The position numbers and the translations under genes are program-made. Shown in pieces: positions 23,689 through 24,462 of a stretch of 26,029 nucleotides of DNA; position 1 is the stretch's first letter, and every line of letters starts with the position of its first letter. This DNA is from a virus. Its lineage: Duplodnaviria; Heunggongvirae; Uroviricota; Caudoviricetes. The notes under the pieces were generated by a model. That model did not search any database and was not told where the DNA came from. It saw only the letters and a program-made list of their open reading frames with translations. Location: the IMG/VR virus record IMGVR_UViG_2671180637_000024, positions 1 through 26,029 of that record; one strand, 5' to 3'.

Positions 23689-24462
23689 TCAAAAATTAGG
23701 TGAGTAACGGACCGGGGACATAGCTCCTTTTTTTCTTAATTCATCTGGTATTTTTTTTCCAAGATAAAGATTTGCTATTTCAGGTGGGGCTTCTCGACCT
23801 TCAAAACCATAGCGAGAACTTTGTGTTGCCTCAAAGTCCGGATCCTCGTCCCAGTATTTCATCGTAGGGAAATTTTCACGTGTTGATTTGAGCCATTTAT
23901 CAGCAATGAAAACCCCTCGAACGATCCCCCTTACAGTCGCAAGAATGACTTCTGCTTGGCTGGCGCGAGAGACATTAATGCGCCAGCTAAATCGAACCGC
24001 ATCATAAAGCTCTGAATCCTTTGCACTTCTGTTAACGGAAATCATTAATGCTTTATGATGAAATGTTATGGTTTCGGGTTGATATGTTGCTATCAACTCT
24101 TTGACATGCGCGGCGCCGAATTCATTGCTGCCAGCACCATTCATGATATTCGTTAACCCAGGGTAGGCATCAATAAGTGCTGCTTCAACTTCGTACGCCG
24201 TCTTTTCATCAGTCATTCCATGTCGATGGATGACATGGATAACTTCAAGTCCCGCTAATCTTATTTCTCTGATTTGCTTTAGCTTGTTGCTCAGTAAGTC
24301 GTCATCATCAGCCGCTGCCACTTCACCGCGCATATGGGCAAATACGCGGTTACCTTTGCCTTTCCCTACATAGAAGGTGCTTCCGTCCCTAGGATCAATC
24401 AATCGGTATACATACCAGCCAAGGTGTTCAATTACTCCAGAAGGAAACTCAGTAATATCCAT
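23689..24462 (-). CDS. GIY-YIG-like nuclease domain protein (N-terminal) with uncharacterised C-terminal domain
   Basis: Motif [29 protein letters not shown] fits the GIY-(10-11 aa)-YIG…R…H pattern of GIY-YIG nucleases; last gene before the attachment-site fragment; start taken at the internal ATG (MDITEF…). Confidence 0.5.

Follow-up and report, generated by a model that had tools for sequence, protein, structure and literature searches.

PD-T4-3, which originates from ECOR68, was found by functional selection in the Escherichia coli pangenome (Vassallo et al. 2022, PMC9519451), and its product, CMoRE, protects against T2, T4 and T6 approximately 10^5-fold, also at a multiplicity of infection (MOI) above 1, so that the protection is regarded as direct immunity and not as abortive infection (Liu et al., PMC12923530). 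The purified enzyme binds and degrades DNA containing 5-hydroxymethylcytosine or its glucosylated form (5hmC or 5ghmC), but not DNA containing C or 5mC; T4(C) escapes whereas T4(hmC) is restricted, and cleavage follows the pattern CN11/N9G, leaves 2-nt 3' overhangs and needs two modified sites (PMC12923530). The N-terminal GIY-YIG nuclease (motif GIYxY-YIG: Y17, Y19 and Y31), active-site mutants of which are dead, carries an autoinhibitory loop between helices alpha2 and alpha3 that places four acidic residues over the active site; when this loop is replaced with alanines (the 4A mutant), the enzyme cuts ordinary DNA, is toxic and loses self/non-self discrimination (PMC12923530). CMoRE is a tetramer, and V92S/L96S abolishes both the tetramer and defence, while the C-terminal domain, a new fold for which Liu et al. 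found no structural homologue, binds 5hm-dCTP, with the main chain of Y127 touching the 5-hydroxyl (PMC12923530). From native promoters, defence is strong for the O157:H7 gene and weak for the version of the avian pathogenic strain APEC O1 (PMC12923530). The clinical isolate NILS69, when deprived of PD-T4-3 by deletion in this native host, becomes sensitised to Tevenvirinae, and a Capnocytophaga homologue (48% identical) is likewise modification-dependent and, at a high dose, also cuts Mom-modified Mu DNA. The structure, specificity and phenotype of CMoRE are already known (published 2022–2026).

In terms of function, CMoRE (CN11/N9G) resembles the PvuRts1I/AbaSI family, members of which are specific for 5hmC/5ghmC and cut 11–13/9–10 nt from the modified base between two symmetric modified cytosines. 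Unlike these enzymes, which combine a PD-(D/E)XK, Vsr-like nuclease fold with an SRA-like sensor, CMoRE joins a GIY-YIG nuclease to a sensor domain without a detected structural homologue. Another point of comparison is McrA of the E. coli K-12 prophage e14, an HNH nuclease that, like CMoRE, is a type IV restriction enzyme against modified cytosine; however, the two proteins are unrelated, and McrA targets 5mC/5hmC whereas CMoRE targets 5hmC/5ghmC.

On the basis of sequence comparison, a gene close to the right end of the window (that is, the whole stretch of 26,029 nucleotides analysed here) almost certainly encodes CMoRE (PD-T4-3), carried by a prophage as a type IV restriction nuclease. The gene and its parts are as follows.

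23689–24462, minus strand: CMoRE gene (PADLOC PD-T4-3, phrog_5356 and PDB 9U75).
24118–24462, minus strand: GIY-YIG nuclease domain with the putative catalytic residues R39 and E91/E93 (PF22945 and register with the published numbering).
24298–24309, minus strand: codons of D52–D55, the acidic autoinhibitory 'lid' loop (DDDD run at residues 52–55).
23692–24090, minus strand: C-terminal modification-sensing domain, residues ~125–257 (function from 5hm-dCTP co-crystals; no Pfam family).

The protein of 257 amino acids matches the PADLOC model for PD-T4-3 (PDLC04031) from end to end (E = 1.7e-140; residues 1–256 on model positions 1–255 of 256), as well as phrog_5356 (E = 4.8e-143), and is identical at 255 of 257 positions to the crystallised CMoRE of E. 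coli O157:H7 (PDB 9U75/9U8D; E = 2.7e-173, 577 bits), the only differences (Q169K and N197H, from the window to the O157:H7 protein) both lying in the C-terminal domain. The tested O157:H7 protein is WP_000355475.1, and the annotation of O157:H7 DEC4E has exactly this CDS at the syntenic position; WP_000355476.1 (Q169, N197), which is the commoner RefSeq protein and is encoded in strains LH10-b-1 and 120899 (loci L001 and L008), shows zero amino-acid differences from the window protein. The window and O157:H7 proteins are alike in length, architecture and all published functional residues: Y17, Y19, Y31, D52–D55, R80, V92, L96 and Y127 are in register, so that every residue named by Liu et al. 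is kept, including the C-terminal domain contact (Y127) and the oligomer residues (V92 and L96). The APEC O1 enzyme (WP_000353910.1; PDB 9U7U/9U7Z) is a full-length homologue of the window protein (502 bits) with, according to Liu et al., the same fold, tetramer and 5hm-dCTP-binding site, but it is clearly more divergent, and its acidic loop reads DDDE and not DDDD as in the window. The preliminary description of this DNA had proposed a defence or restriction-like moron and had suggested phages with modified DNA as a test; the first proposal is borne out by the 99% identity to a type IV nuclease with experimental proof, and the second was apt, the published specificity being for the 5hmC/5ghmC DNA of T-even phages. 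Evidence contradicting the assignment to CMoRE was not encountered in this analysis.

The gene occupies the minus strand from an ATG at 24462, whereas a six-frame listing gives an open reading frame of 23689–24513 (minus strand) when opened at an upstream TTG. The ATG is the right start, because the alignments to the PADLOC and PHROG models begin at residue 1, the RefSeq CDSs at the syntenic position in related genomes measure 774 nt and the crystallised construct opens at the same methionine. A GIY-YIG pattern had been recognised by eye in the first 100 residues, and the Pfam search that had been proposed to place it does return such a domain, PF22945 (LEM-3_GIY-YIG), at residues 28–110 (E = 3.6e-14; 53.5 bits against a cut-off of 27), whereas the generic GIY-YIG model PF01541 reaches only 13.6 bits, under its Pfam cut-off. 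The tyrosines of the GIYxY-YIG motif are found as W16-Y17-V18-Y19 and F30-Y31-V32-G33, numbered as in Liu et al., and the general GIY-YIG pattern points to R39 and E91/E93 as the catalytic Arg and Glu; neither the main text nor the two supplementary files of Liu et al. name Y17A, R39A, E91A, E93A, H43A or N108A. When the N-terminal domain by itself served as query for a remote search of PDB sequences, neither UvrC nor any other GIY-YIG structure that might fix the catalytic Arg and Glu came up, and an NCBIfam search with the window protein gave no match. As for the remaining ~150 residues, which had been described as unassigned, no Pfam family matches them, in agreement with that description, but the literature now assigns them to a 5hmC/5ghmC-sensing domain.

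Assuming that the window protein behaves as the one on which the experiments were performed (from which it differs at 2 of 257 residues), its action can be envisioned as follows. CMoRE would form a tetramer (that is, a dimer of dimers), the C-terminal domains of which would bind DNA containing 5-hydroxymethylcytosine or glucosyl-hydroxymethylcytosine, one dimer reading two modified cytosines approximately 21 bp apart, and the N-terminal GIY-YIG domains would make a double-strand cut between them (CN11/N9G) with Mg2+ or Mn2+. The acidic D52–D55 loop over the active site would repel ordinary or 5mC-containing DNA and spare the DNA of host and prophage. Incoming DNA of T-even-type phages would be degraded within minutes and the infected cell would survive, amounting to direct immunity and not abortive infection. 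The acidic loop has natural variants: D55E occurs in the genes of a sibling prophage (L004, 36191–36964) and a circular molecule (L007, 28106–28879), the latter also carrying A51T. Such variation (D55E, A51T and the DDDE of APEC O1) may tune the stringency of self/non-self discrimination.

Comparison with other loci delimits a cassette of approximately 1.03 kb (window ~23626–24659) that is common to three unrelated prophage backbones and has CMoRE as its sole gene; no methyltransferase or partner gene is present in the shared cassette, which makes this a single-gene system. The cassette follows pin in the sibling prophage L004 and lambda-type stf/tfa genes in strain 120899 (with 100% nucleotide identity of the gene), is placed between tail-fibre genes and int in L007 (a 43.7-kb circular molecule, NZ_CP081794.1) and is also found in a decayed CP-933H-type remnant of O157:H7. 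The GC content of the gene (43.8%, against 51.3% for the late region) is a cargo signature. In the window, CMoRE has a convergent pin on one side and a tRNA fragment and an AraC regulator on the other, and the edge on the pin side is formed by a stem-loop, copies of which recur elsewhere.

23074–23628, plus strand: pin-type DNA invertase (Resolvase, E = 1.5e-51, and HTH_7; 93.7% nucleotide identity to pinE).
23628–23669, no strand assigned: stem-loop at the left edge of the cassette, where pin and CMoRE converge (folding energy and relatives).
L007 28047–28068 and 29067–29088, and L004 ~37160–37200: copies of the hairpin motif.
L005 ~3222–3262, L006 3214–3235 and L008 4943–4964: further copies of the hairpin motif.

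The stem-loop folds with -26 kcal/mol (z = -5.2) on the plus strand and -18.7 kcal/mol (z = -2.6) on the minus strand and is probably a bidirectional terminator; a simple terminator scan did not call it, because its loop is longer than 8 nt. Several unrelated prophages carry its motif of approximately 40 nt (AAACCGYAG..ACG..CGTGCTRCGGTTT) after their final late gene, which is pin or tfa, and the motif also closes the late operon in relatives without the cassette. In L004 and the circular phage L007, the cassette is flanked by two copies in direct orientation. We suggest that the conserved hairpin probably doubles as terminator and as a recombination handle for the exchange of morons.

These boundaries bear on an alternative raised in the preliminary description, namely that the gene is a free-standing GIY-YIG homing endonuclease (similar to the Seg enzymes of T4) that spreads the cassette by cutting cassette-free sites after pin. 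Sharp boundaries of a discrete ~1.03-kb unit in unrelated prophages and the bracketing ~40-nt hairpin copies in L004 and L007 are what such an element might leave behind, jumbo-phage homologues are annotated as 'putative homing nuclease', and the window protein does have a weak match to a PHROG homing endonuclease family (E = 0.0026). However, hairpin-bounded cassettes are also the normal look of phage morons swapped by recombination, the cassette disrupts no host gene, intron or intein, and the homologues in Klebsiella and Enterobacter (74–77% nucleotide identity) are solitary chromosomal genes outside any phage. More decisively, the 99%-identical enzyme shows neither binding nor cleavage of DNA that is unmodified or carries 5mC, and enterobacterial prophage DNA would therefore not be cleavable and homing would be impossible, while its sequence specificity is almost nil and its site requirement loose (two modified C approximately 21 bp apart); CMoRE lacks the hallmarks of the Seg or I-TevI type, that is, a long unmodified site and a propagated intron or intergenic insertion. 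Published enzymology largely refutes homing, and with a near-identical enzyme devoid of activity on unmodified DNA this alternative was not borne out; we give it almost no credence.

With CMoRE regarded as a type IV restriction nuclease, its position next to pin invites comparison with e14. CMoRE is opposite in strand to the late operon, as had been described, and converges on pin at a distance of 60 nt. The pinE gene of K-12 e14 and the pin gene of the window share 93.7% nucleotide identity up to the stop codon, after which mcrA follows in the former and CMoRE in the latter; McrA therefore occupies the same slot, directly after a 94%-identical pin and before the prophage end, although mcrA lies on the same strand as pin. 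The analogy drawn earlier with mcrA beside pin in e14 holds at the level of sequence, the slot that begins at the pin stop codon being literally shared; in related prophages, type IV restriction nucleases of two unrelated kinds occupy this pin-adjacent position. A relative of the window phage at the pphA site has nothing after pin, whereas relatives near yfhH carry uncharacterised genes in place of CMoRE.

L002 26306–27151 and 27453–27719, minus strand: post-pin open reading frames of vB_EcoM-606R2 (281 and 88 amino acids).
L006 3263–4360, minus strand: post-pin trio of O55:H7 DEC5E (90 amino acids, a DUF2335 membrane protein of 183 amino acids and 108 amino acids).

PADLOC and Pfam scans of these occupants gave no match to a defence family; they are candidate cargo or defence genes. 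A further conjecture, which we consider possible but rather doubtful, is that the site after pin in e14-like and Mu-tail lambdoid prophages serves as a dedicated exchangeable defence slot. If so, the unannotated genes at this site would be novel anti-phage genes, with the conserved hairpin and the tRNA-Ser-like junction as the recombination handle that moves cassettes; the idea that type IV restriction genes may be swapped in and out next to pin is a mildly new angle. The circular 'plasmid' record L007 is evidently an excised e14/HK97-like temperate phage. Its stretch from the tail-fibre genes to int (26636–33722) reads tfa, acyltransferase, CMoRE, Dcm-type methyltransferase, type II endonuclease, DinI and int, and forms a small defence island in which a 5mC-based restriction–modification system stands beside a nuclease that, according to Liu et al., ignores 5mC.

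On the other side of CMoRE, the upstream region runs into a fragment of a tRNA gene and then into a regulator gene.

24463–24641, minus strand: CMoRE upstream region, presumed to hold its own promoter (conserved with the gene in unrelated prophages).
24642–24703, plus strand: 3' fragment of tRNA-Ser(CGA) (62/62 match to nt 29–90 of K-12 serU).
25286–26029 (window end), plus strand: AraC-family regulator (HTH_AraC/HTH_18) in a block of 37% GC.

A promoter scan of the upstream region found no consensus sigma-70 site on the CMoRE strand, and no obvious Shine-Dalgarno sequence was found upstream of the gene; expression is for this reason assumed from the published use of native promoters, and the window allele is presumably transcribed from its own upstream region and active. 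The weakness of the APEC O1 version under its native promoter suggests that defence may be stronger or weaker according to allele or promoter. Together with the undetected consensus promoter, that weakness would also be in keeping with a relic that looks intact but is silent or inactive, left by an older thrW prophage and providing no defence in this strain, as would the state of the thrW region in related strains, where prophage remnants pile up amid IS insertions and truncated pin and terminase genes. Yet the open reading frame is intact and conserved: 838 of 5,426 complete E. coli genomes (~15%) carry the gene at a nucleotide identity of at least 95%, and the loci that were compared differ by 0–2 amino-acid changes. 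The gene of O157:H7, where the context is the most decayed, gives strong defence from its native promoter, and the deletion in NILS69 has a phenotype in the native host. We therefore consider a relic very unlikely, if slightly less so than homing, and favour an active CMoRE. The window and O157:H7 share a locus type (pin, CMoRE, tRNA-Ser fragment and AraC gene in a thrW prophage array), but in O157:H7 IS elements fragment the late region and pin, both of which are intact in the window.

The tRNA-Ser fragment starts 180 nt upstream of the CMoRE start codon, and the cassette ends on the right within the anticodon arm of this fragment (window ~24659), where the homology to L004 and L007 ends and, in both, the break leads into the second hairpin copy via an 8-nt microhomology, GAAA(A)CCG. 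In the whole window, scans with ARAGORN and Rfam (at gathering thresholds) detect neither a complete tRNA or tmRNA nor any other RNA family, and no 3' fragment of thrW lies within it. ssrA was considered as the source of the fragment and rejected in favour of a serU-type tRNA-Ser. An intact thrW beside proA opens the array in O157:H7 DEC4E and LH10-b-1, and a 46-nt repeat of the thrW 3' end closes it approximately 1 kb past the AraC gene, after an IS remnant and beyond the counterpart of the window end. Given that this repeat closes the array further out in related genomes, the tRNA-Ser piece is probably an internal relic or cassette boundary rather than a working att site; the reading is drawn from those genomes, as the window ends before the far side of the AraC gene. 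It may, for instance, derive from the former att junction of a different element. The preliminary description had placed CMoRE as the last gene before an att fragment: a genuine tRNA-derived junction does lie 180 nt away, but it is a tRNA-Ser piece that is probably a relic and not a working att, and the thrW bracket of the relatives lies past the AraC gene.

The remainder of the window (1–23000) belongs to a temperate prophage of myovirus type, the late region of which it spans from the terminase to the tail-fibre genes, and is 96.7% identical to vB_EcoM-606R2-type records and ~82% identical to Salmonella phage SEN34. The vB_EcoM-606R2-type records, the nearest in the phage collection, are predicted prophages flanked by host DNA of a different integration site, and they share this late region up to pin only. 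An invertible tail-fibre segment of approximately 1.7 kb, situated within 20905–23047, closes the region.

21255–21278 and 22989–23012: 24-nt inverted repeats, 92% complementary, that flank the invertible segment.

The segment contains two opposed Caudo_TAP tail-fibre assembly genes and an alternative fibre C terminus (Gp53-like_C). Under the control of the neighbouring pin, it forms a host-range switch of the classic G/P-segment type. PatE (z0321) is a prophage-encoded activator of acid-resistance genes (PMC10877973), and the AraC gene beside CMoRE is probably PatE, as judged by its position in the thrW array of O157:H7 (OI-8/CP-933H).

The window gene itself is one further copy of a known defence enzyme and of little consequence as such; its practical value lies in annotation, as the RefSeq label of the protein is still just 'LEM-3-like GIY-YIG domain-containing protein' and the strain is predicted to be T-even-resistant, which is relevant to host range in phage therapy. 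A megablast search of the phage collection with the gene returned no match, and full-length homologues with 39–45% identity are encoded by jumbo phages of Serratia, Pectobacterium, Pantoea, Pseudomonas and Klebsiella, which may use them as modification-dependent nucleases against competing phages with modified DNA. Examples of these genes, annotated as homing nuclease or hypothetical, are found in Serratia phage Moabite (6406–7161) and Pseudomonas phage OBP (158703–159449).
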